From an uncultured Clostridia bacterium (GTDB lineage Bacteria; Bacillota; Clostridia; Christensenellales; UBA1242): a DNA stretch of 64,000 nucleotides. How positions within the stretch are numbered: the first letter of the stretch is position 1; every line of letters begins with the position of its first letter. The stretch covers positions 17,144 through 81,143 of the forward strand of contig CALWPB010000002.1 of NCBI GenBank assembly GCA_944383315.1. The letters are read 5' to 3'. Positions 29,919 to 60,716 of the stretch are shown here, in pieces. A model generated the notes under the pieces. It saw nothing but the letters and a program-made list of their open reading frames with translations. It made no database searches and had not been told where the DNA came from. The position numbers and the translations under genes are program-made.

Positions 29919-30692
29919 TTGTCAAAGCAAGATAAGAATTTAGGCATAATGGGAGAACTCATATTCTCAGGAAAATACGGAGTAAAAAAATATTTTATTG
30001 ATATAAATAGTGATACATTATCAAAGCAATTATCAAAGCGCAAAGGCAAATACTATACTTTAAATTGTTCGCGTTTGTTTTGTACTTCGGAACCTGCCCG
30101 AAAATATATCACAAAACAAGTTGTTGAAATTTTTAGCGATTTTTTACAAGATATAAGCGGTACTGTGATGGTTGTTGGACTAGGCAATGCCTTTTTAGTG
30201 GCAGATAGTTTAGGGGCTGCTGTTGTAAAAAATATACTAACGACCCACAATATCCCTGCAGAAATTAGACAAGACTTAGGCGATGTCTGTGCTTTAATTC
30301 CGGGGGTAAGCGGAATAAATGGCTTTGCAACGGCTGATATAGTGCAAGGCGCGGTTAATACTGTTCACCCAAAATGTGTAATAGTTATTGATGCGCTTAC
30401 AGCAAAAGACGCAAGTAGATTGGGGTGCAGTTTCCAATTTAGCAATACAGGGGTATCACCGGGGGCTGGTATAGGGAACTTCAATAAAGACATATCCAGA
30501 GAAACATTAGGTGTGCCTGTTGTTGCTGTTGGTGTGCCTATGATGATTGAGGCTAGTTCTTTTGGTTATGAGCAAGAATACTTTGTTGTTACACCCAAAG
30601 AAATTGATATCTATACCCAAAATTGCGCAAAAATTTTATCACTCGCTATAAACGAAGTATTGCACGGCAAAAAATATAAAAATTATATGTAA
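29919..30692 (+). CDS. gpr: GPR endopeptidase (spore germination protease), compact form
   Basis: VVGLGNAFLVADSLG and VIVIDALTA carry the two catalytic Asp contexts of Gpr. ISNTGVSPGAGIGN and LGVPVVAVGVPMMI are colinear with Bacillus Gpr. The gene is divergent from rpsT, as in B. subtilis. TTG start with RBS aagggg. Confidence 0.8.
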   Translation: MSKQDKNLGIMGELIFSGKYGVKKYFIDINSDTLSKQLSKRKGKYYTLNCSRLFCTSEPARKYITKQVVEIFSDFLQDISGTVMVVGLGNAFLVADSLGAAVVKNILTTHNIPAEIRQDLGDVCALIPGVSGINGFATADIVQGAVNTVHPKCVIVIDALTAKDASRLGCSFQFSNTGVSPGAGIGNFNKDISRETLGVPVVAVGVPMMIEASSFGYEQEYFVVTPKEIDIYTQNCAKILSLAINEVLHGKKYKNYM

Positions 30693-30730
30693 ATTCACTT
30701 TTTATTACAAGCAAATGAACATAAAAAGGG

Positions 30731-30775
30731 GGCAAGTTTTAGTTGTTTTTACTACAAAATTTGCCTTGTTTTCTT
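30731..30775 (+). terminator. probable gpr terminator
   Basis: ggcaagtttt (30731-30740) pairs with aaaatttgcc (30756-30765) with one G-U pair, followed by ttgttttctt. Confidence 0.5.
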
Positions 30776-30923
30776 AATTTTAGTGCAAATTCAGGGGGCA
30801 AATAAATAAATTATATTGAGTATGTAATATTAGTCAAGTCAATAGTATAATAATTACGAAGCCAAGATAATATCTATTTGATATAATTATCTACTTTAAT
30901 ATATCAAACTCAAAGGAGAAATT

Positions 30924-31685
30924 ATGTATTTAGTTATAAGAAAGAATGCCAAAGATTTTTATTACAGCGAATGTTTCGGTATTTTAAAACAAAATATAAA
31001 AGATAAGTTTGTAAAAGAGAAATTTATAGTTTTTAATAGCGATCATACAAATTTAATACTTACAGAAAAGTATTTTTACTATCGTGATTCTCAAGAAGAT
31101 AAAAAAGATTATCCACCCTATGCTGCTAAAAAATGTATTTTAATTGATACTAATAGAAGTAATTGGGTAGAAGCAAATGATAATTTGCAGGGTTATGATT
31201 TTATAGTAAATAATGACACGATTATGAAAAAATTGCTTAATAATGAGCAACTTGACAATAACATAATAACACAAGCAAAAGAAATTAATGAAAAATACGT
31301 GTTAAGTGAATGGCACAACCTTCAAACTGAATATGATATAAATAACATTAACCAATTAACATTTCATTTTCACGATGCTGAGTTAAAGAAGATAATAAAA
31401 GATGAAAATTCTACTACATTCATTTTTGATAATTGGGGTTTCCTTGTGTACTTAAAATGCGACAAAGAGAGTTGTAGATATAATTTAAAAGTTGAAGACA
31501 TATGCTCTAGTGGCGAGATTATTAAGACGGAGAAAGGATTTAAATTTACAGCTTTTGAAGAATTTTATGGCGAAGTAATAAGTTATTACTTTATTGAATC
31601 AAACAGTATGCAGTGGAAAATTGAGTTGTTACCATTGCCAAACAAAACTTGGTCATATATAGAAAACTCAAAAGATTTAAACTAA
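30924..31685 (+). CDS. hypothetical protein, tandem paralogue A (253 aa)
   Basis: RBS aaaggag. The ORF is intact in very AT-rich DNA, and its paralogue is downstream. No motif recognised, and no TM segment or signal peptide. Confidence 0.7.
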   Translation: MYLVIRKNAKDFYYSECFGILKQNIKDKFVKEKFIVFNSDHTNLILTEKYFYYRDSQEDKKDYPPYAAKKCILIDTNRSNWVEANDNLQGYDFIVNNDTIMKKLLNNEQLDNNIITQAKEINEKYVLSEWHNLQTEYDINNINQLTFHFHDAELKKIIKDENSTTFIFDNWGFLVYLKCDKESCRYNLKVEDICSSGEIIKTEKGFKFTAFEEFYGEVISYYFIESNSMQWKIELLPLPNKTWSYIENSKDLN

Positions 31686-31858
31686 CTAAAATTTTATATA
31701 TTTACTAGGATTATCATAACAGAAATTTAGAATAGACATACATTACAAGCTTAATTATTCATTTTAAATAGTGTCTTTAATATTTTTAAAATTCAAAAAT
31801 TTACTTGATTTACATTAAAAAGAGTTCAGTTAATATTAAATTAATAAAGGAGAAAATT

Positions 31859-32617
31859 ATGTATTTAGTTATAAGAAAGAATGCCAAAGATTTTTATTAT
31901 AGCGAATGTTTCGGTATTTTAAAACAAGATATAAAAGATAAGTTTGTAAAAGAGAAATTTATAGTTTTTAATAGCGATCATACAAATTTAATACTTACAG
32001 AAAGAGATTTTTATTTTCGCGTTTCCAAAGAAAGCAAAAGCACTTTCGCTACTAGAAAATGTTTCCTTTTAGACAACGATAAGAGTAAATGGGTAGAAGC
32101 AAATGATAATTTACAGGGCTATGATTTTATAGTAAATAATAATGCAGTAATGAAGAAATTATTAGATAATGAGCAACTTGATAATAGTATAATAGCACAA
32201 GCTAAAAATATTAATGAAAAATTTGTGCTTAGCGAGTGGCACAATGTTGTTACTGATTATGATATTAGGAATTTTGAGCAAGTCGCAAGTAATTTTGATG
32301 ATGCTTATGTTGAGAAAATCATTGATGATAATGAATCAATCGTTTTTGTATTTGATACAACGTGGGATTATCTTGTATATTTAAAATGTGATAAAAGCAG
32401 TTTACAACATAATATTAAAGTTGAAGAAAAAATAATGTGGTTTTGGGGTGAGGTTGATAAAACAGATAAGGGATTTAAATTCACATCCTTTGAAGAATCT
32501 AGAGACGGAAAACATTATGGTTTTATTGAATCAAACAGTATGCAGTGGAAAATTGATTTGTTACCGTTGCCAAACAAAACTTGGTCATATATAGAAAACT
32601 CAAAAGATTTAAACTAA
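31859..32617 (+). CDS. hypothetical protein, tandem paralogue B (252 aa)
   Basis: The ATG at 31859 (MYLVIRKNAKDFYY, identical to copy A) follows RBS aaaggag. The track ORF from TTG 31805 is an upstream extension. Confidence 0.7.
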   Translation: MYLVIRKNAKDFYYSECFGILKQDIKDKFVKEKFIVFNSDHTNLILTERDFYFRVSKESKSTFATRKCFLLDNDKSKWVEANDNLQGYDFIVNNNAVMKKLLDNEQLDNSIIAQAKNINEKFVLSEWHNVVTDYDIRNFEQVASNFDDAYVEKIIDDNESIVFVFDTTWDYLVYLKCDKSSLQHNIKVEEKIMWFWGEVDKTDKGFKFTSFEESRDGKHYGFIESNSMQWKIDLLPLPNKTWSYIENSKDLN

Positions 32618-32836
32618 CTAAATTTATATAAGTTTGCCTCAGGTTTTTCCAATTACTTTGAATAAATAAACATTATAAGTATAATTATTCATTTCTATGC
32701 GATGGCATTAAAAATTAAAAAATTTTTTAATTTAATAGATTTACATCAAAAAGAGTTCAGTTAATATTAATTAATATTGGCCACTCTTTTTATTTTTACT
32801 ATGTCAAAATAGAAAACATATTCATACATTACTACT

Positions 32837-33610
32837 ATGAAAAAAACAAGACAACCCATTTTAGTAATTGATAGCGGAATAGGTGGGCTTACAGTACTCT
32901 ATAATTTAGTACTGCAAAATCCAAATTGTGATTATATCTATTTTGCTGATTACGTAAATTCACCTTATGGTGATAAAAGCGCAACTTTTTTGCGTAAAAA
33001 ACTCATTGAAAATATAAAAACACTAAATAAGAAATACTCTCCACAAGGAGTAGTGCTTGCTTGTAATACCGCAACAGCAGTTGCTGTGGGTGTGCTTAGG
33101 CGAGTTTTCCCGTATGATTTTATAATAGGAACAGAGCCTGCGGTAATGAGTGCAGTGAACGATAACAAGAAAAATATTCTCGTTTTGGCTACTCCTAATA
33201 CTCTTAAATATAACAAATTAATTGCGGAGCAGTGCCATAATGATAATATAAATCTTGAAGTTTTAGCATTGCCAAATCTTGCTACATATATAGAGGACAA
33301 TATAGATAATTTAAAATTACTTAAACCTATTGTGCAAAGTTATTTATCGCCATTTTTGCCACACATTGATTCGATTGTGCTTGGTTGCACGCATTACATT
33401 TATTTAAAGCCTATGCTGCGTGAAATATTAAGTACTGACATAAAAGTTTATGACGGTAATGTAGGAGTTGCTAAACAAACTCATCGTAAAACCAAATCAT
33501 ACAAAAACGGAAGAATTTACGTAATCACGAATGATGCAAGGAAAGGGGCAAATTTAATTTCTGCTTGGAATTTGTTGGCTAAGGAGGGGAGCATAATATG
33601 TGCGGAATAG
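32837..33610 (+). CDS. murI: glutamate racemase
   Basis: VIDSGIGGLTV, ACNTAT and GCTHY catalytic Cys contexts. Confidence 0.93.
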   Translation: MKKTRQPILVIDSGIGGLTVLYNLVLQNPNCDYIYFADYVNSPYGDKSATFLRKKLIENIKTLNKKYSPQGVVLACNTATAVAVGVLRRVFPYDFIIGTEPAVMSAVNDNKKNILVLATPNTLKYNKLIAEQCHNDNINLEVLALPNLATYIEDNIDNLKLLKPIVQSYLSPFLPHIDSIVLGCTHYIYLKPMLREILSTDIKVYDGNVGVAKQTHRKTKSYKNGRIYVITNDARKGANLISAWNLLAKEGSIICAE

Positions 33611-50465: not shown

Positions 50466-53400
50466 TTGAGTTTTAAGAGAATAGAGGTTTTGGGGTTTAA
50501 GTCATTCGCTGATAAACTCGCTGTTGAATTTAGTAGCGGAATTACTGCAATCGTAGGTCCAAACGGTTGCGGTAAGTCCAATTTTGCTGATGCTATTCGT
50601 TGGGTTTTGGGTGAGCAATCATCAAAAAACTTGCGCGGTAGTTGTATGCAAGATGTTATTTTTAAGGGTTCAGAAAATCGCAAAAGTTTGTCTTTTTGTG
50701 AGGTTTCTTTAATATTTACAAATGAAAATCATCAGTTTAATGTGGATTATGACGAAGTAGTCATTTCTCGTAAATTGTATAGGTCTGGGACAAGTGAATA
50801 TAGTCTTAATCATTCACCTTGTTTATTAAAGGATATCAAAAATATTTTGCACGATAGTGGTATTGGTGGCGATGGTTATTCAATTATAGGACAAGGTAAA
50901 GTTGAGCAAATTGTTGCAAGTAAGCCCGAAGATAGACGTGTTATTTTTGAAGAAGCAGCAGGCATTGCTAAGTTTAAAGAGCGTAAAATTGAGGCAGAAC
51001 GCAAACTTACACGTACTCGTGAGAATCTAACTTTGCTTGAAAATACGGTAATAGAAATCGAAAGACAATTAAACCCGATGAAAGAGCAGGCAGAAAAGGC
51101 TAAAAAATATCTTGATTTGCGCGATCAATTAAAATATCAAGAGGTAAATAATTATATTTATCATTATGAAAACGCAAATTCAAACAAGCAACGTATAAAT
51201 GACTTGCTTGACGGCTTGCGTGAACAGTCAGCGGACAAGGAAAAACAAGTTCAGGCAACAATAGACAAGCAAAACCAGTCATTAGAAGGCATAAAAGCCA
51301 TTGATGAGCAAATCCAATCACTTCGTGATGAAATTTTGAAATTGACTGTAAATCTTGAAAAAACTGCGGGCGACCGCCGTGTAGCGCAAGCAAAGTTGGA
51401 GTATTTACAAGAGCAGTCTGTTAAAATTCAAAATGAGATTGAGCAGGACAAAATAGAATTTGTTAGAATTAATGATGAGTTACAGGCAAAGCAGACCGAG
51501 AAATCAGAGAATAATGAACGTTTAAATGCGATGCGTGCTAAATTAGACGAGTTGGAACAAATTTATGCAGGTGTTGCAGAGCAGTTGAGAGTGAGTGAAC
51601 AGGCGGTTAGTGGCTCACAGCAAGAAATGCAAGACGCAATTTCAAAATTAAGTGATATTAAGGCAAATATTTCGCGTCTGGAAACAGAAATTCAAGCGAT
51701 TGCCGAACGTGAAAATGAATTAAATCAGCGACTTGCTTCAGTTGAGAGTAAGCGAGATGGCGCAAAAGTTATTGAGCATCAAGCGCAGGACGATTGTGAA
51801 GTTGCCGAAGCAAATAGGCGTAATGCGTGGGATAACCTAACAGCATTAAGAGAAAATGTTTCAAATGTTGAGCAAGGCGAAGCAGATTTGCGAGCAAGTT
51901 TGGATATTTCAAGTGCTGAACTGGCAAAACTAGAATCTCGCGCAAAATTACTTAACGAAATGCAGGCAGAGTATGAAGGCTATAACGGTACTGTACGTAG
52001 ATTATTGCTTGATGCATCAAAAAATATTGAGTTGCAAAAGTTGCTTATAGGTGTAGTAGGTGAGTTGATAACAGTGCCAACTCAACTTGAAACAGCGATT
52101 GAAATGGCATTAGGTTTTGCAGTGCAAAGTATAGTTACACGTGATGAACAAGACGCAAAACGTTTGGTTAATTACTTAAAATCGCGTAATTACGGGCGTG
52201 CAACTTTCTTGCCTATAACGTCTATGAAACCAAAATACATAAACGAACAATATCGTTCGCTACTTAATACTGCTGGCTGCTACGGTGTTGCGAATGAGTT
52301 GATTCAGTATGATATGAATTTGGAGCCAGTTTTCAAAAACTTGCTCGGTAATACTGTAATTGTTGACACTATGGATACGGCAGTCAGCCTTGCGAATAGG
52401 TCGCATTTTGGCTTTAAAATTGTTACGCTTGATGGCGATGTGATTAATCCAGCGGGTTCAATTACTGGTGGTAGTAAAAAGGCTGAAATAAACAACCTAT
52501 TATCTCGTGAGCGCGAAATTGAAACTATTGCAGAAAAGATAAAATCTCAGCGCAGCAAAGTTGACGAACAGAAGAATACTCTTGCTGTTTATGGCGAAAT
52601 GCTTACTAAACTGGCAAAAGAAATTGATGCTCAGGCTAATATGCTTCACGACTATGATGTCGAGTTAGCGCAGAAAGAAGAAGTATTAAAGCACGCACAA
52701 GAAGATAGTGAATTGTATTCTGGTGAACTTGATGAGATTAATCAAGAATTATCTCGTTTGACAACTCGCCGTGAAATTTTGGAGCAAGAACTGAATACTA
52801 CCAAAGCAATGGATGCAGGTGAAATACCTCAGGCAAAAGGTGGAAGTGGTAATAATCAGTATGACATATTGCGTGAAAAGAGAGATAATCTCACAAATCA
52901 AATTACAGATTTAAAAGTACAAATTGCTACACTTACAACAGAAATTGGCTCTATTGATAATGAGATTGAAAGATTGCTTACAGAACAAGAAGAGTTAAGC
53001 GCAAATATTGATGAGAATAACTCATTATTGGTTAAAAATTCACGCACTATTGAAACCGCAAAAGAACTTGACGCGGGCGCTCAAAATGGAGACGATGCGG
53101 ATACTGTTAGCAAATTAGATGCCGTGAAAACAAAAGTTGCCGAAATGGAAGAATTAAAGCAAGATTTACACGCAAGCCTTGCAACAATTGAGGAAGAACG
53201 TACCCGCGTTACAAATGAGTATGCAAAAATTCAAGAGCGAATTTATCAAGAAGAAGCGCGCCTTGCACAAATTGATACTAATATTGAGAATATGCAAGAC
53301 CGTATTTTAGAAGATTATGAACTTACATATCTTACTGCGCTTGATATTAAGGATGAAAACTTTGATGCTGAAGGCGCACAAACTCGCATTAATGAATTGA

Positions 53401-54032
53401 AACGCGAAATAGGCAAACTAGGACACGTCAACGTAAACGCGATTGAAGACAGCAAAGATTTAGATGCAAGGTATACAGATTTATCAACGCAACTTGACGA
53501 CCTCAAAAAAGCGGAAGAAGATATAATGACAGTTATCAACGAGTTGAGCGCTCAAATGACTGAACAGTTTGACGACAAGTTCCAGAAGATTAATGAGAAT
53601 TTTTCTCGTATATTTAGAGAATTGTTCGGTGGTGGTAAGGCTCGACTTGTATTGACTGATGACGATGTGTTGACCGCTGGTGTCGACATTATTGCAGAAC
53701 CACCAGGGAAGGCGCTCGGCAACCTGAACCTATTGAGTGGTGGTGAAAAATCATTAACAGCAATAGCAATATTGTTTGCAATTTTGAAACTTCGCCCAAT
53801 GCCATTCTGTTTACTTGACGAAATTGACGCAGCATTAGACGATGCAAATGTTGAACGTTTTGCGAAATATCTGCACCGCTTTGCTGGTGAAACTCAATTT
53901 ATCGTTATTACTCACCGTAAGCCAACTATGGAACTCGCAGACAACCTGTACGGTGTAACAATGGAACAGAAAGGTGTAAGTAAGGTTGTATCTGTTAAGT
54001 TAAGCGAAGCAATACAGACCGCAACATCGTAG
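50466..54032 (+). CDS. smc: chromosome segregation protein SMC
   Basis: Walker A GPNGCGKSN, a long coiled coil, a hinge, the signature LSGGEKSLTA and Walker B LLDEIDAALD. TTG start 7 nt after gggag. Confidence 0.97.
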   Translation: MSFKRIEVLGFKSFADKLAVEFSSGITAIVGPNGCGKSNFADAIRWVLGEQSSKNLRGSCMQDVIFKGSENRKSLSFCEVSLIFTNENHQFNVDYDEVVISRKLYRSGTSEYSLNHSPCLLKDIKNILHDSGIGGDGYSIIGQGKVEQIVASKPEDRRVIFEEAAGIAKFKERKIEAERKLTRTRENLTLLENTVIEIERQLNPMKEQAEKAKKYLDLRDQLKYQEVNNYIYHYENANSNKQRINDLLDGLREQSADKEKQVQATIDKQNQSLEGIKAIDEQIQSLRDEILKLTVNLEKTAGDRRVAQAKLEYLQEQSVKIQNEIEQDKIEFVRINDELQAKQTEKSENNERLNAMRAKLDELEQIYAGVAEQLRVSEQAVSGSQQEMQDAISKLSDIKANISRLETEIQAIAERENELNQRLASVESKRDGAKVIEHQAQDDCEVAEANRRNAWDNLTALRENVSNVEQGEADLRASLDISSAELAKLESRAKLLNEMQAEYEGYNGTVRRLLLDASKNIELQKLLIGVVGELITVPTQLETAIEMALGFAVQSIVTRDEQDAKRLVNYLKSRNYGRATFLPITSMKPKYINEQYRSLLNTAGCYGVANELIQYDMNLEPVFKNLLGNTVIVDTMDTAVSLANRSHFGFKIVTLDGDVINPAGSITGGSKKAEINNLLSREREIETIAEKIKSQRSKVDEQKNTLAVYGEMLTKLAKEIDAQANMLHDYDVELAQKEEVLKHAQEDSELYSGELDEINQELSRLTTRREILEQELNTTKAMDAGEIPQAKGGSGNNQYDILREKRDNLTNQITDLKVQIATLTTEIGSIDNEIERLLTEQEELSANIDENNSLLVKNSRTIETAKELDAGAQNGDDADTVSKLDAVKTKVAEMEELKQDLHASLATIEEERTRVTNEYAKIQERIYQEEARLAQIDTNIENMQDRILEDYELTYLTALDIKDENFDAEGAQTRINELKREIGKLGHVNVNAIEDSKDLDARYTDLSTQLDDLKKAEEDIMTVINELSAQMTEQFDDKFQKINENFSRIFRELFGGGKARLVLTDDDVLTAGVDIIAEPPGKALGNLNLLSGGEKSLTAIAILFAILKLRPMPFCLLDEIDAALDDANVERFAKYLHRFAGETQFIVITHRKPTMELADNLYGVTMEQKGVSKVVSVKLSEAIQTATS

Positions 54033-54387
54033 GTTGTCAAGAGTTCCATTGCCAGCCGTACAGTAAATGTAGTAGTAGAAAGACAAAGTAACAAACGGCT
54101 GTCAATTTTTCGCAGACAACCTGTACGGTGTAACAATGGAACAGAAAGGTGTAAGTAAGGTTGTATTTGTTAAGTTAAGCGAAGCAATACAGACCGCAAC
54201 ATCGTAGGTTGTCAAGAGTTCCATTGCCAGCCGTACAGTAAATGTAGTAGTAGAAAGACAAAGTAACAAACGGCTGTCAATTTTTCGCAGACAACCTGTA
54301 CGGTGTAACAATGGAACAGAAGGGTGTAAGTAAAGTTGTGTCGGTTAAGTTGAGTGAAGCAATACAGACTGCAACATCGTAGGTTGT
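53935..54387 (+). repeat. 175-bp tandem repeat, 2.6 copies (98-nt smc 3' tail + 77 nt)
   Basis: Copy 1 is 53935-54109. Copy 2 is 54110-54284 (1 mismatch). Partial copy 3 is 54285-54387 (7 mismatches, all at smc-frame third positions). Confidence 0.95.
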
Positions 54388-54459
54388 ATTTTAAAAATTT
54401 TGAATTTTGAATTAGGAATTTAGTATTAAGGGGAAATAATATTTCTAGGTAGGCAAACT

Positions 54460-55356
54460 ATGGGTTTTTTCAATAAAATTAAAGAAGCATTTAAAAAGAC
54501 TAAAACATCAATAGACAACAAATTAATGTCTATAATGTCGCACGGCGAACTTGATGACGAATTTTTTGACGAGTTGACGGATATTTTAATTTCGTCAGAT
54601 TTGGGAGTAGAATGTTCGGAAGAAATTGTGGAACGTCTGCGCGCAGAAGCCAAAAAGACAAAGTTACGTAACCAAGACGACGTAAAACAAGCATTGCGCG
54701 AAATAATGCAGGACATTTTGGAACAAAATGAATTGCCAGAAATTACATATCCGCTTGTGCTTATGATTGTTGGGGTAAATGGAGTAGGCAAAACTACAAC
54801 TATCGGCAAACTTGCTAATTTTTATAAGAATAAAGGCAAGTCAGTATTGCTCGTTGCTGGGGATACTTTTAGAGCCGCTGCAAGTGAACAACTAGCGATT
54901 TGGGCAAATAAAAATAGTGTAAAAATCGTACGTAATGATGACGGTGCAGACCCTGCAAGTGTTGTTTTTGACGGTATATCTAGCGCAAAAGCGAAAGGAA
55001 CAGACGTAGTTATTATTGATACTGCGGGCAGATTGCATAACAAAGCAAACCTTATGGAAGAATTGAAAAAAGTTTCCAAGGTTGTTACAAATAATTGGGG
55101 TGAGGCTTGTTATCAAAAACTGTTAGTTCTTGATGCTACAACAGGACAAAATGCATTGAGTCAAGTAGAATATTTTGACGAAGCAATAGAACTTGACGGC
55201 TTGATTGTTACCAAATTAGACGGTACTGCAAAAGGTGGAGTAATTCTAGGAATAGCACAAGAGTACAATACTCCCGTTATGTTTATTGGTACGGGTGAGA
55301 AGATAGACGATATAGACGAGTTTGACGCAAAAGAATTTGTTGAAGCAATTATTTAG
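54460..55356 (+). CDS. ftsY: signal recognition particle receptor FtsY
   Basis: NG domain with GVNGVGKTTTIGKLA, DTAGR and TKLDGTAKGG. Follows smc, as in Bacillus. Confidence 0.95.
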   Translation: MGFFNKIKEAFKKTKTSIDNKLMSIMSHGELDDEFFDELTDILISSDLGVECSEEIVERLRAEAKKTKLRNQDDVKQALREIMQDILEQNELPEITYPLVLMIVGVNGVGKTTTIGKLANFYKNKGKSVLLVAGDTFRAAASEQLAIWANKNSVKIVRNDDGADPASVVFDGISSAKAKGTDVVIIDTAGRLHNKANLMEELKKVSKVVTNNWGEACYQKLLVLDATTGQNALSQVEYFDEAIELDGLIVTKLDGTAKGGVILGIAQEYNTPVMFIGTGEKIDDIDEFDAKEFVEAII

Positions 55357-60409: not shown

Positions 60410-60496
60410 GCCGAAGTGGCGGAATTGGCAGACGCAAGGGACTTAAAATCCCTCGAGAGCAATCTCGTACCGGTTCGAGTCCGGTCTTCGGCACCA
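60410..60496 (+). tRNA. tRNA-Leu (UAA), long variable arm, CCA encoded
   Basis: Acceptor stem gccgaag/cttcggc, anticodon arm aggga-CTTAAAA-tccct, variable arm cgagagcaatctcg and T arm ccggt-tcgagtc-cgg. Confidence 0.93.
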
Positions 60497-60637
60497 ATCA
60501 CAGTTTCGGCTGTTTTTTTGTTTTTTAGGGATTTTAAGCCCCTGCGGGACTTAACTCTGTTGAGCCAGACCGCAGCGAAGCTGCTCCCAGCTTTGGCTAA
60601 AAACAGCACGCCTGTGCTATTTTCTTAACGCGTCGCC

Positions 60638-60690
60638 CCCTCGAGAGCAATCTCGTACCGGTTCGAGTCCGGTCTTCGGCACCAATCACA
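60638..60690 (+). repeat. perfect 53-nt duplicate of the 3' part of tRNA-Leu(UAA) plus 7 nt of trailer
   Basis: Identical to 60450-60502, running from the 3' strand of the anticodon stem through CCA and aatcaca. It lacks any 5' half, so it is not a functional tRNA. Confidence 0.95.
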
Positions 60691-60716
60691 CCTTTAAAGT
60701 TTAAAGGTGTTTTTTT
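60689..60716 (+). terminator. strong terminator after the partial tRNA-Leu copy
   Basis: cacctttaa-agt-ttaaaggtg followed by T7. Confidence 0.9.

Follow-up and report, generated by a model that had tools for sequence, protein, structure and literature searches.

Organization of the smc-ftsY region

The window (the whole stretch of DNA that was analysed, 64,000 nt in length) contains on its + strand an ORF of 1188 aa (50466..54032 in the ORF list) for smc, a gene that organises the chromosome, followed on the same strand by ftsY (54460..55356, ORF list), which also comes next after smc in all relatives in which its position was found. The Pfam domains SMC_N and SMC_hinge were matched in the smc orthologue (L002-L004), and an exact look-up of the SMC protein from the window returned no match. 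The 3' end of smc is reiterated: Tandem Repeats Finder reports 2.6 copies with a period of 175 nt, spanning 53935-54387, with 96% matches and no indels. Each unit joins a "tail", made up of the final 98 nt of smc and 5 further nt, to a spacer, termed X here, whose left part repeats in inverted orientation the smc sequence at the left edge of the repeat.

All members of the array are on the + strand. Tail copy 1 (53935..54037, delimited by direct comparison and Tandem Repeats Finder) is of the A type and is expressed; it comprises the last 31 codons of smc, the stop codon and GTTGT. It is followed by X copy 1 (54038..54109), with a left inner arm GCCAGCCGT (54051-54059), a right inner arm ACGGCTGTC (54095-54103) and a purine-rich loop of 35 nt between them. 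Tail copy 2 (54110..54212), also of the A type, is silent, and is followed by X copy 2 (54213..54284), which is identical to X copy 1 and has a hairpin closed by pairing with the first part of tail copy 3 (54290-54305). Tail copy 3 (54285..54387) is silent and of the B type; its likeness to the other copies stops past GGTTGT (54387), where the intergenic DNA of empty alleles begins. The 72-nt spacer occurs twice in the window and nowhere else in it (0 occurrences expected from shuffles).

The sole difference between unit copy 1 (53935-54109) and unit copy 2 (54110-54284) is C/T at 53992, in the second codon position; the T at 54167 in copy 2 would turn Ser to Phe. Within the 103 nt of the tail, differences between copies 3 and 1 are found at positions corresponding to 53972, 53984, 53990, 53993, 54002, 54005 and 54020, all seven of which are synonymous changes in the third codon position of the smc frame. 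The three copies otherwise translate alike, as ADNLYGVTMEQKGVSKVV, then Ser or Phe, then VKLSEAIQTATS and the stop. Synonymous changes make up 23.3% of all possible single-base changes in the tail, which gives P ~4e-5 for seven out of seven. The description of the array in the first-pass annotation (2.6 x 175 nt, Ser to Phe in copy 2, seven synonymous changes in copy 3) was reproduced exactly by our re-analysis. A diversity-generating retroelement, in which the differences between template and variable repeats are confined to adenines, was considered and rejected, as the seven differences are A/G, G/A, A/G, T/G, A/G, C/T and C/T and no reverse transcriptase was found among the scanned ORFs.

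Strain alleles and the number of units

The relatives are seen as short metagenomic contigs and the focal DNA is one 64-kb window, which is almost certainly metagenome-assembled as well, because all relatives are. A single unit (tail-X-tail) is typical of the ~12 near-identical strain assemblies, none of which has two units, and this one-unit layout is reproduced across many independent assemblies; among the assemblies of its species, only the window has two. Empty alleles were confirmed in L009 and L129 only. Both are missing exactly one tail plus X, so that the tail runs straight into ATTTTAAAAATT; L005, whose contig begins inside the tail, and L006, where a scaffold gap hides X, were not scored as empty. 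Alleles with no unit and with one unit exist side by side in the window species, as they do in the L017 species, in agreement with the copy-number polymorphism anticipated in the first-pass annotation. The absence of X from the empty alleles led us to reject a simple tandem duplication, which would build the unit solely from DNA that is contiguous in the unduplicated allele, as the origin of the unit; the gain of the second unit, on the other hand, fits such a duplication.

The extra unit of the window could be either a true intermediate of unequal crossover or an assembly loop traversed twice in a mixture of strains. With flanks 100% identical to those of the window, L007 and L008 carry the allele A(C)-X-B and L100 carries A(T)-X-B, one unit each, and the window allele A(C)-X-A(T)-X-B is therefore open to both readings. 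According to the second of them, which we regard as possible though not probable, unit 54110-54284 is an assembly artefact produced when a de Bruijn-graph loop was walked twice in a sample containing two strains that differ by the C/T SNP of tail 1, and the true genome has one unit. Besides the one-unit C and T alleles and the lack of a second two-unit assembly in the window species, this would agree with the frequent breaks or spurious gaps of scaffolds at the repeat (N runs in L001, L006 and L125, with 55 nt duplicated on either side of the L001 gap; contigs of L005 and L127 starting within the repeat). However, the loop walk requires k-mers in which X runs on into a tail of the A type (with A at repeat position 38), and since these are absent from strains of the L007 and L100 types, a third strain type (like L002, L003 or L010) would be needed too. 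Moreover, a biologically coherent route leads from A(C)-X-B through A(C)-X-A(T)-X-B to A(T)-X-B, and this also accounts for the Phe at an otherwise invariant Ser in the expressed copy of L100, the T allele of the silent window copy 2 being the expressed-tail allele there. A multi-unit array is found in L023 too, albeit in a short-read assembly; L127 was considered as an independent two-unit case and rejected, since its first 55 nt are an X-to-tail junction k-mer. The artefact reading touches copy number only and fits either origin model discussed below.

Spacer X as a conserved hairpin

The first-pass annotation regarded the 72 nt of X as unique cargo. We found instead that X is a conserved hairpin, confined to the smc-ftsY locus in the 1.59 Mb of related DNA searched, and that its left arm reproduces smc sequence in inverted orientation. 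X and the first bases of the next tail fold into an interrupted hairpin of ~25-30 bp, the loop of which measures ~35 nt (54025..54130, + strand; RNA fold -30.6 kcal/mol, z = -4.1, with 0/200 shuffles as stable; DNA fold z = -3.9). In the outer stem, 54025-54038 (CATCGTAGGTTGTC, which includes the smc stop codon) pairs with 54115-54130 (GACAACC..TACGGTG, at the start of tail copy 2), and the inner stem lies wholly within X. The fold is far more stable than those of shuffled sequences in the window, L014, L017, L020 and L023 (z = -3.5 to -5.1); the advantage over shuffles is reduced in L019 (z = -2.6) and unclear in L025 (z = -1.4).

Hand tabulation of the stems revealed that 8 of the 9 positions of the inner stem are paired in 10/10 sequences (6 haplotypes), with the position of the single mismatch conserved and with compensatory pair changes at positions 4, 8 and 9; one compensatory change occurred inside the L017 species (GAAAT/ATTTC to GGAAT/ATTCC). 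The outer stem is perfect over 7-13 bp in nine sequences from eight species, and tracks each species' own smc codons. The spacing of the arms is 33-39 nt, with the exception of L020 (52 nt). The left arm matches, in inverted orientation, the smc sequence that the species itself has at the boundary of the repeat (window, p = 0.006; L023, p = 0.002; L019, p = 0.07); this inverted likeness is short (17 of ~22 nt in the window), and the inverted copy straddles the insertion point, also in L127. Stem pairs are nearly all Watson-Crick, and a comparison of the two strands for RNA-level asymmetry (G-U pairs, fold energy per strand) found none, so that any role of the stems may lie at the RNA or the DNA level, and the apparent covariation could be mimicked by mutational "quasipalindrome correction".

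Searches for a known class of element to which the hairpin might belong gave no assignment. Rfam covariance models matched the region 53500-54800 at chance level only (E > 4), and a scan of the region for promoters and terminators yielded nothing useful. An intrinsic terminator (a short GC-rich stem, a loop of 3-8 nt and a T run) was rejected, as there is no terminator-like site in 53600-54600, the loop is ~35 nt and a T run is present in some species only. The hairpin resembles REP/REPIN sequences in having two inverted arms of ~10-25 nt around a spacer just downstream of a gene, possibly with an mRNA-stabilising role; unlike these elements, which are dispersed, multi-copy and free of any gene-tail duplication, X is found only at smc-ftsY. 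A dispersed hairpin repeat (REP/REPIN/MITE) was rejected on these grounds, the motif having this single location in 1.59 Mb and X occurring just twice in the window. A metagenome-wide exact search with the left end of X reported chance matches only, in high-GC soil contigs, from a collection evidently devoid of these gut lineages.

Distribution among related species

The tail-spacer-tail layout was found in ~10 species of a Christensenellales-like clade of uncultured gut Clostridia. Carriers of tail-X-tail are the window species, L014, L017, L019, L020, L022, L023, L117 and L108/L115; in L025 and L011, X is present without an intact second tail. The gap between smc and ftsY is shorter than 900 nt in 74/80 species representatives, and in the remaining 6 the contig ends before ftsY. 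Occupied and empty species are interleaved on the ftsY tree; the distribution of X tracks the host phylogeny with scattered losses, and its sharing is largely vertical. The left boundary of the repeat lies at three different positions of smc depending on the lineage (termed ADN, KGVS and SDAL), the KGVS type being found in the L022/L023/L025 subclade plus L020. In the ADN and KGVS types the left boundary is always at the foot of the outer stem.

Exchange and decay of the tails, and the case for an integrative element

The first-pass annotation proposed that the silent distal copy is a genuine smc terminus from another lineage. This is borne out twice: the B-type tail is expressed in strain L001, and the two tails of L115, from a sister species, differ at 12 codons (15 nt), all of them synonymously. 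In L115 the distal tail is that species' own type, and the proximal tail matches none of those sampled, except that its first 23 nt are native and the remainder foreign; the same foreign-proximal, native-distal pattern is weaker in L019 (compared with its sister L018). Mosaics of A and B tails in L003, L004 and L010 indicate homologous recombination and gene conversion, which can yield such a pattern without an integrase. Other silent tails carry indels (L022), a garbled segment (L017) or amino-acid changes (Glu to Lys in L002, Ser to Phe in window copy 2), or are lost (L025). The silent tails fall into those that resemble alleles functional until recently and those in visible decay.

Duplicated att sites of this general appearance are known from ICEs, IMEs and CIMEs, such as ICESt1/ICESt3 and CIMEs at the 3' end of fda in Streptococcus thermophilus, as well as from tRNA and tmRNA genes. 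The smc locus resembles them in several respects: direct repeats from the 3' end of the target (103 nt) flank the insert (the 72-nt X), the proximal copy completes the gene and the distal one is silent, three repeats are possible by accretion, and presence/absence is polymorphic. The unit could thus be a miniature att-flanked integrative element, i.e. a decayed or trans-mobilised CIME-like relic, that entered the 3' end of smc by site-specific recombination and left the replacement tail at attL and the displaced native tail at attR, with tandem accretion giving three repeats. The insertion relative to empty alleles, which is exactly tail plus X rather than a plain duplication, its precise presence or absence within species, the foreign proximal and native distal tails of L115 (and, more weakly, L019 versus L018) and the presence in the window of a tRNA-Leu(taa) gene with its 3' part duplicated in the classic manner, polymorphic between strains, would all fit. 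We nonetheless consider this reading unlikely. No recombinase domain was found in 20 ORFs of the window, in line with the first-pass annotation, although the genome may encode a recombinase elsewhere, and no integrase, relaxase or related autonomous element was found at this site in ~130 related loci (including L100-L140). Nothing longer than ~200 nt separates the tail copies in the 74 species representatives with ftsY located and in ~50 strain loci. Phages, plasmids and IMG/VR gave no match to X, and a search of IMG/VR for sequences like the smc tail found none; the cargo, only 72 nt long, consists not of leftover element genes but of a conserved hairpin that is partly derived from the target. 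The implied crossover point (the left edge) varies between lineages among homologous X elements, which is unexpected for a sequence-specific recombinase, and the tails recombine as ordinary homologous sequences, as indicated by the mosaics and by the crossover inside tail 1 of L115. Finally, the distribution tracks the host phylogeny. Of the first-pass interpretation, therefore, the silent tail as a true smc terminus and the polymorphism are supported, and the recombinase-driven integration is not supported by direct evidence.

The tRNA-Leu insertion and a possible hairpin-guided cassette

The insertion at tRNA-Leu(taa), in which the duplicated 3' part of the gene is accompanied by 135 nt of cargo, has a further feature in common with the smc unit: within its cargo, immediately 5' of the repeat, the anticodon arm is present in inverted orientation. 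tRNA genes are canonical targets of integrases. A more unusual explanation for both loci, to which we assign a low probability, is a gene-less mobile cassette in which the inverted target sequence of the spacer would base-pair with the target itself or, folded as single-stranded DNA, imitate its duplex form, in the manner of CTX-phage attP or integron attC. Insertion would thereby be guided to the stem foot, the target restored and the formation of tandem arrays made possible. Such a cassette would explain why the left edge of both ADN- and KGVS-type repeats lies at the foot of the outer stem, even though this edge is shifted by 33 nt between the two types, and why the inverted copy spans the insertion point. 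The conserved mismatch of the inner stem and the constant arm spacing are as in DNA hairpins recognised by proteins, and tandem arrays are present in the window and L023. However, the hairpin occurs at one locus in 1.59 Mb, its distribution is largely vertical and no candidate enzyme was found. Furthermore, both boundary types come after a repeated ACNATGGA motif in smc, so that a 33-nt deletion could derive one from the other, and the tracking of smc codons by the stem is explicable by quasipalindrome correction together with gene conversion. A true integron attC site (RYYYAAC ... GTTRRRY, with crossover in GTT) was rejected: the stem ends GGTTGTC ... GACAACC have the opposite polarity, and are wholly different in L020 and L023. 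It would be a long shot to propose that the smc unit and the tRNA-Leu insertion represent an undescribed class of gene-less "tail-replacement" cassettes at the 3' ends of essential genes, with the inverted target copy serving as a nucleic-acid guide or folded target mimic for a host or trans-encoded enzyme.

A proposed fold-back duplication followed by homologous recombination

Altogether, the locus gives the impression of an old local structure that is prone to recombination, and not of a recent insertion by a mobile island. The explanation that we prefer, with a confidence close to even, is that of an old, clade-wide "tail-hairpin-tail" fold-back duplication of the smc 3' end, as opposed to a recent integrase-bearing insertion. 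The unit would have arisen a single time, the simplest route being fold-back with template switching at the smc 3' end (an event of the DUP-INV-DUP type), and its later evolution would be due to ordinary homologous recombination. Gene conversion between the two tails, and exchange of the expressed tail with alleles of other strains or species, may have produced foreign proximal and native distal tails with synonymous differences only. Tail-by-tail crossover would delete the unit and give the empty alleles, and unequal crossover within the first 37 identical nt would give the second unit of the window. The hairpin has probably been retained for a putative RNA or DNA role between smc and ftsY, e.g. 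as a stabiliser of the mRNA 3' end or a processing site.

DUP-INV-DUP rearrangements and quasipalindrome correction resemble the smc structure in that a direct duplication is split by an inverted copy of the boundary and complementarity between the arms persists; the smc hairpin also has a 35-nt loop and a conserved mismatch, neither of which this model predicts. We infer the fold-back origin solely from the inverted similarity, and the loop would be unexplained filler. Fold-back and template-switch rearrangements are known mainly as sporadic mutations, and to our knowledge there is no report of a fold-back structure conserved across species at an essential gene. Further points count against the fold-back model. 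Long persistence of the unit between 103-nt direct repeats requires selection or re-creation; the left boundary, which differs between lineages and lies at the stem foot in the ADN and KGVS types, hints at a mechanism that fixes its position; and the tRNA-Leu mini-insertion of the same architecture suggests a recurrent process rather than a single accident. A partly similar outcome has been described in fungal mitochondria, where partial C-terminal duplications of atp6 and cob are separated or flanked by ORFs of GIY-YIG and LAGLIDADG endonucleases (PMC6279837). There, as in smc, a replacement C-terminal segment is fused to the gene and the displaced or duplicated segment is silent downstream, but the smc copies reside in a bacterial chromosome and have no ORF between them, and no endonuclease candidate was found.

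If the fold-back and recombination reading is right, the smc locus would be a clean natural example of a silent duplicate of the end of an essential gene that is kept "coding-like", by means of gene conversion and the exchange of alleles. Variants can also pass from the silent copy back to the expressed gene, as illustrated by the Phe allele, silent in the window and expressed in L100. The locus further cautions that att-like geometry with purely synonymous divergence is by itself no proof of integrase-mediated insertion. The hairpin between smc and ftsY, conserved and specific to this locus, may serve as a regulatory or structural element in this uncultured gut lineage, and the fixed relation between hairpin and repeat boundary, together with the parallel case at tRNA-Leu, leaves room for a more unusual mechanism of insertion.

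Tandem reiteration of the smc 3' end

The region 53935-54387 of the window forms a single array of 2.6 copies with a period of 175 nt and no indels, which begins in the end of smc (50466-54032, + strand) and stops short of ftsY (54460-55356, + strand). The repeat unit consists of a 103-nt tail (the final 31 codons and the stop of smc, followed by GTTGT) and a 72-nt spacer, referred to here as X, of which no copy was found elsewhere in the window. Copies 1 and 2 differ only at 53992/54167, where a C to T change at the second codon position replaces Ser by Phe. Copy 3 comprises the tail alone, without X, and differs from copy 1 at 7 sites, 7/7 of them third codon positions and 7/7 synonymous; as 23% of the possible single-base changes in the window tail are synonymous, this outcome has P ~4e-5. 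Tandem Repeats Finder and direct comparison reproduced in full the coordinates, unit and differences of copies 2 and 3 described in the first-pass annotation. The tail haplotypes of copies 1 and 3 are termed A and B, and the alleles at 53992/54167 A(C) and A(T).

Elsewhere in the window (30919-31690), three blocks of 51-150 nt recur at ~930 nt offset in a set of four tandem ORFs (29919-33610, about 255-270 aa, low GC of 0.29-0.33), the first of which matches the germination protease Peptidase_A25; these ORFs are probably tandem paralogues. A distant relative (L062, 15808-16055) has a 97-nt GC-rich segment with an exact repeat 151 nt downstream, at the contig end.

Variation among near-identical strains

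Exact look-up of FtsY and the downstream HTH protein retrieved about a dozen contigs (gut metagenome assemblies and one MAG) with flanks 99-100% identical to the window. Copy number is polymorphic among them: most (L002-L004, L007, L008, L010, L100) carry one unit (tail-X-tail), and L009 was confirmed as an empty allele (0 units), whose single tail passes directly into the ftsY leader. L005 (contig start within the tail), L006 and L001 (scaffold gaps at the repeat) are not simply scorable for unit number. The L001 gap at the repeat is spurious, because the 55 nt on either side of it are identical. The 100-N gaps in public assemblies (L001 5360-5459 and 12610-12709, L006 1794-1893, and those of L057 and L125) are all flanked by identical 55-nt sequences, i.e. 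overlapping contig ends, and are therefore spurious; gene calls that span them are lost, e.g. smc in L001.

The tails of the close relatives are mosaics of the A and B haplotypes (e.g. tail 2 of L003/L004 is A-B-A), which indicates gene conversion or crossovers inside the repeat.

No close-relative assembly except the window contains two units. The window reads A(C)-X-A(T)-X-B. L007/L008, with A(C)-X-B, and L100, with A(T)-X-B, share its flanks at 100% identity, and the window may represent a real intermediate between these forms: an unequal crossover within the initial stretch of 37 identical nt would generate the second unit, a mutation would arise in the silent copy, and a later deletion would move the Phe allele to the expressed position, the state found in L100. 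Alternatively, the assembler may have passed twice through a graph loop created by a mixture of strains; since such a loop would also require k-mers that join X to an A-type tail, supplied by a third type of strain, we give this assembly artefact a sizeable minority chance. The expressed smc tail of L100 (~1620-1640, equivalent to window 53992) has TTT (Phe), the allele that is silent in window copy 2, on a scaffold of 85 kb that matches the window at 100% elsewhere. Apart from these two Phe alleles, Ser is conserved at this site in every tail seen.

Origin of the silent tails

The suggestion that the distal copy was once a working smc terminus gains support from several loci. The expressed tail of L001 is of B type, silent in the window as copy 3, and B is therefore a genuine functional terminus in this population. 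In L115, a second allele of the species of L011, 12 codons (15 nt, including TCC/AGT and TTG/CTT) distinguish the two tails over the 66 nt compared, and the encoded peptide is identical. The L115 distal tail has 4-10 differences from other tails of its own species and the proximal one 15-20 from every sampled tail; the latter is native over its first 23 nt, which points to a crossover within the tail. L018, the sister of L019, has one tail, from which the distal tail of L019 differs at 6 positions and the proximal one at 10. Silent tails elsewhere look as unselected DNA should: L022 has indels, L017 a scrambled segment, L025 has lost the tail, and L002 and window copy 2 carry non-synonymous changes.

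The pattern of foreign proximal and native distal tails, earlier ascribed to site-specific integration, does not require an integrase: provided that two tails pre-exist, homologous replacement of the expressed tail by another lineage's allele yields the same picture.

Distribution across related species

The wider survey, with one genome per species, covered 80 loci of uncultured Clostridia, many of which carry the label Christensenella or Christensenellales. Reiterated tails occur in the closest clade (L014, L017, L019, L020, L023, L022): L023 has three identical 163-nt units followed by a tail, and in L022 the second tail has decayed. L025 keeps X with the second tail reduced to 7 nt, and in L011/L012 the X left arm precedes a 125-nt element bounded by terminal inverted repeats. 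Further look-ups added tail-X-tail alleles in the L011 species (L108/L115), a repeat of 33 nt (L117/L118) and an empty allele within the L017 species (L129). A repeat variant that starts at the smc residues KGVS, rather than ADN, is found in the L022/L023/L025 subclade and in L020. In the ftsY tree occupied and empty species are interleaved; with the KGVS distribution, this suggests that tail-X-tail inheritance is old and mainly vertical, with repeated loss.

Elements of ~125 nt that are bounded by terminal inverted repeats (TTAAC...GTTAA) and 72-78% similar to one another occur in L001 (5585-5708 and 5787-5911), L011 (10928-11052) and L104-L116, with smc-ftsY as their only locus in 1.59 Mb. 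One lies directly 3' of the X left arm in two species, and in L001 another splits a third silent smc tail of greater divergence.

The first-pass annotation regarded the repeat as the relic of an att-flanked, CIME-like integrative element. The att duplication geometry of ICE/IME/CIME elements is the same, but their defining enzyme and cargo features were not found at the smc locus. The 20 window ORFs scanned are all housekeeping genes and include no recombinase, no related locus examined has a larger cargo between tails, and the 80 species loci contain neither a second tail at greater distance nor a genomic island at this site. No relative examined has an integrase-bearing element here: ftsY lies <900 nt 3' of smc in 74/74 loci where it is locatable, the contig ending before ftsY in the remaining 6/80. 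Nothing similar to X was found in phages, plasmids or viral contigs, and the viral contigs also yielded no sequence resembling an smc tail. We consider such a relic unlikely. The C-terminal gene duplications beside homing-endonuclease ORFs in fungal mitochondria (PMC6279837) likewise match in geometry but not in enzyme and cargo.

Spacer X as a conserved hairpin

X, together with the post-stop bases and the start of the next tail, is predicted to fold as a long interrupted hairpin (window: -30.6 kcal/mol, z = -4.1 against shuffles; z = -3.5 to -5.1 in L014, L017, L020 and L023), weaker in L019 (z = -2.6) and not clearly above shuffles in L025 (z = -1.4). In the inner 9-bp stem, 8/9 positions are paired in 10/10 sequences (six haplotypes), with the mismatch at the same second position in all ten and compensatory pair changes at positions 4, 8 and 9; a compensatory change also distinguishes two strains of the L017 species. 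The outer stem, formed by the post-stop bases and the first bases of the next tail, is perfect over 7-13 bp in nine sequences (eight species), and its sequence tracks the smc codons of each species and the repeat boundary, at ADN or at KGVS. The left arm of X reproduces, in inverted orientation, smc sequence of the same species from the left boundary of the repeat (window p = 0.006, L023 p = 0.002, L019 p = 0.07). Arm spacing is 33-39 nt, with the exception of L020 (52 nt). The motif occurs at this locus only within 1.59 Mb of related DNA. The 72 nt described as unique in the first-pass annotation thus belong to a conserved hairpin with an inverted smc copy as left arm. The repeat locus has no Rfam match, and a canonical terminator at the hairpin was rejected, as none was found. 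Neither strand is favoured in fold energy, and nearly all pairs are Watson-Crick; these data do not distinguish an RNA from a DNA role.

A second mini-insertion of the same architecture is present in the window at tRNA-Leu(taa) (60410-60496; region 60410-60700). A 53-nt repeat, the last 48 nt of the tRNA plus ATCAC, recurs exactly 188 nt downstream (60450-60502 and 60638-60690) and encloses a 135-nt cargo (60503-60637) with its own terminator at the start, an inverted copy of the anticodon arm (AGGGATTTTAAGCCCCT) and a predicted long hairpin fold. The cargo has no Rfam, phage or plasmid match. The insertion is present in strain L001, and strain L002 has an empty site; in species L013, with ftsY only about 79% identical, a 92% identical cargo lies beside that species' own tRNA-Leu in other genomic surroundings. 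A further 3' duplication of tRNA-Leu(taa), with a 131-nt cargo, occurs in L065. Because of this parallel, and because the outer stem has its base at the repeat edge in both ADN and KGVS types, a hairpin-guided cassette stays a candidate for smc, albeit an improbable one.

Fold-back or template-switch rearrangements account for the inverted boundary copy in X, but leave the conserved loop length and mismatch of the hairpin unaccounted for. The most economical account, to which we give about even credence, is an old fold-back duplication evolving by recombination. It would have produced the order tail, inverted boundary copy, loop, direct copy, tail; the duplicated tails would then have evolved by gene conversion, allele exchange, deletion and unequal crossover. 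The smc locus is classed as a duplication of a gene's 3' end whose spacer is a conserved hairpin, a variant of a known geometry, in which the hairpin would be retained for some putative function.
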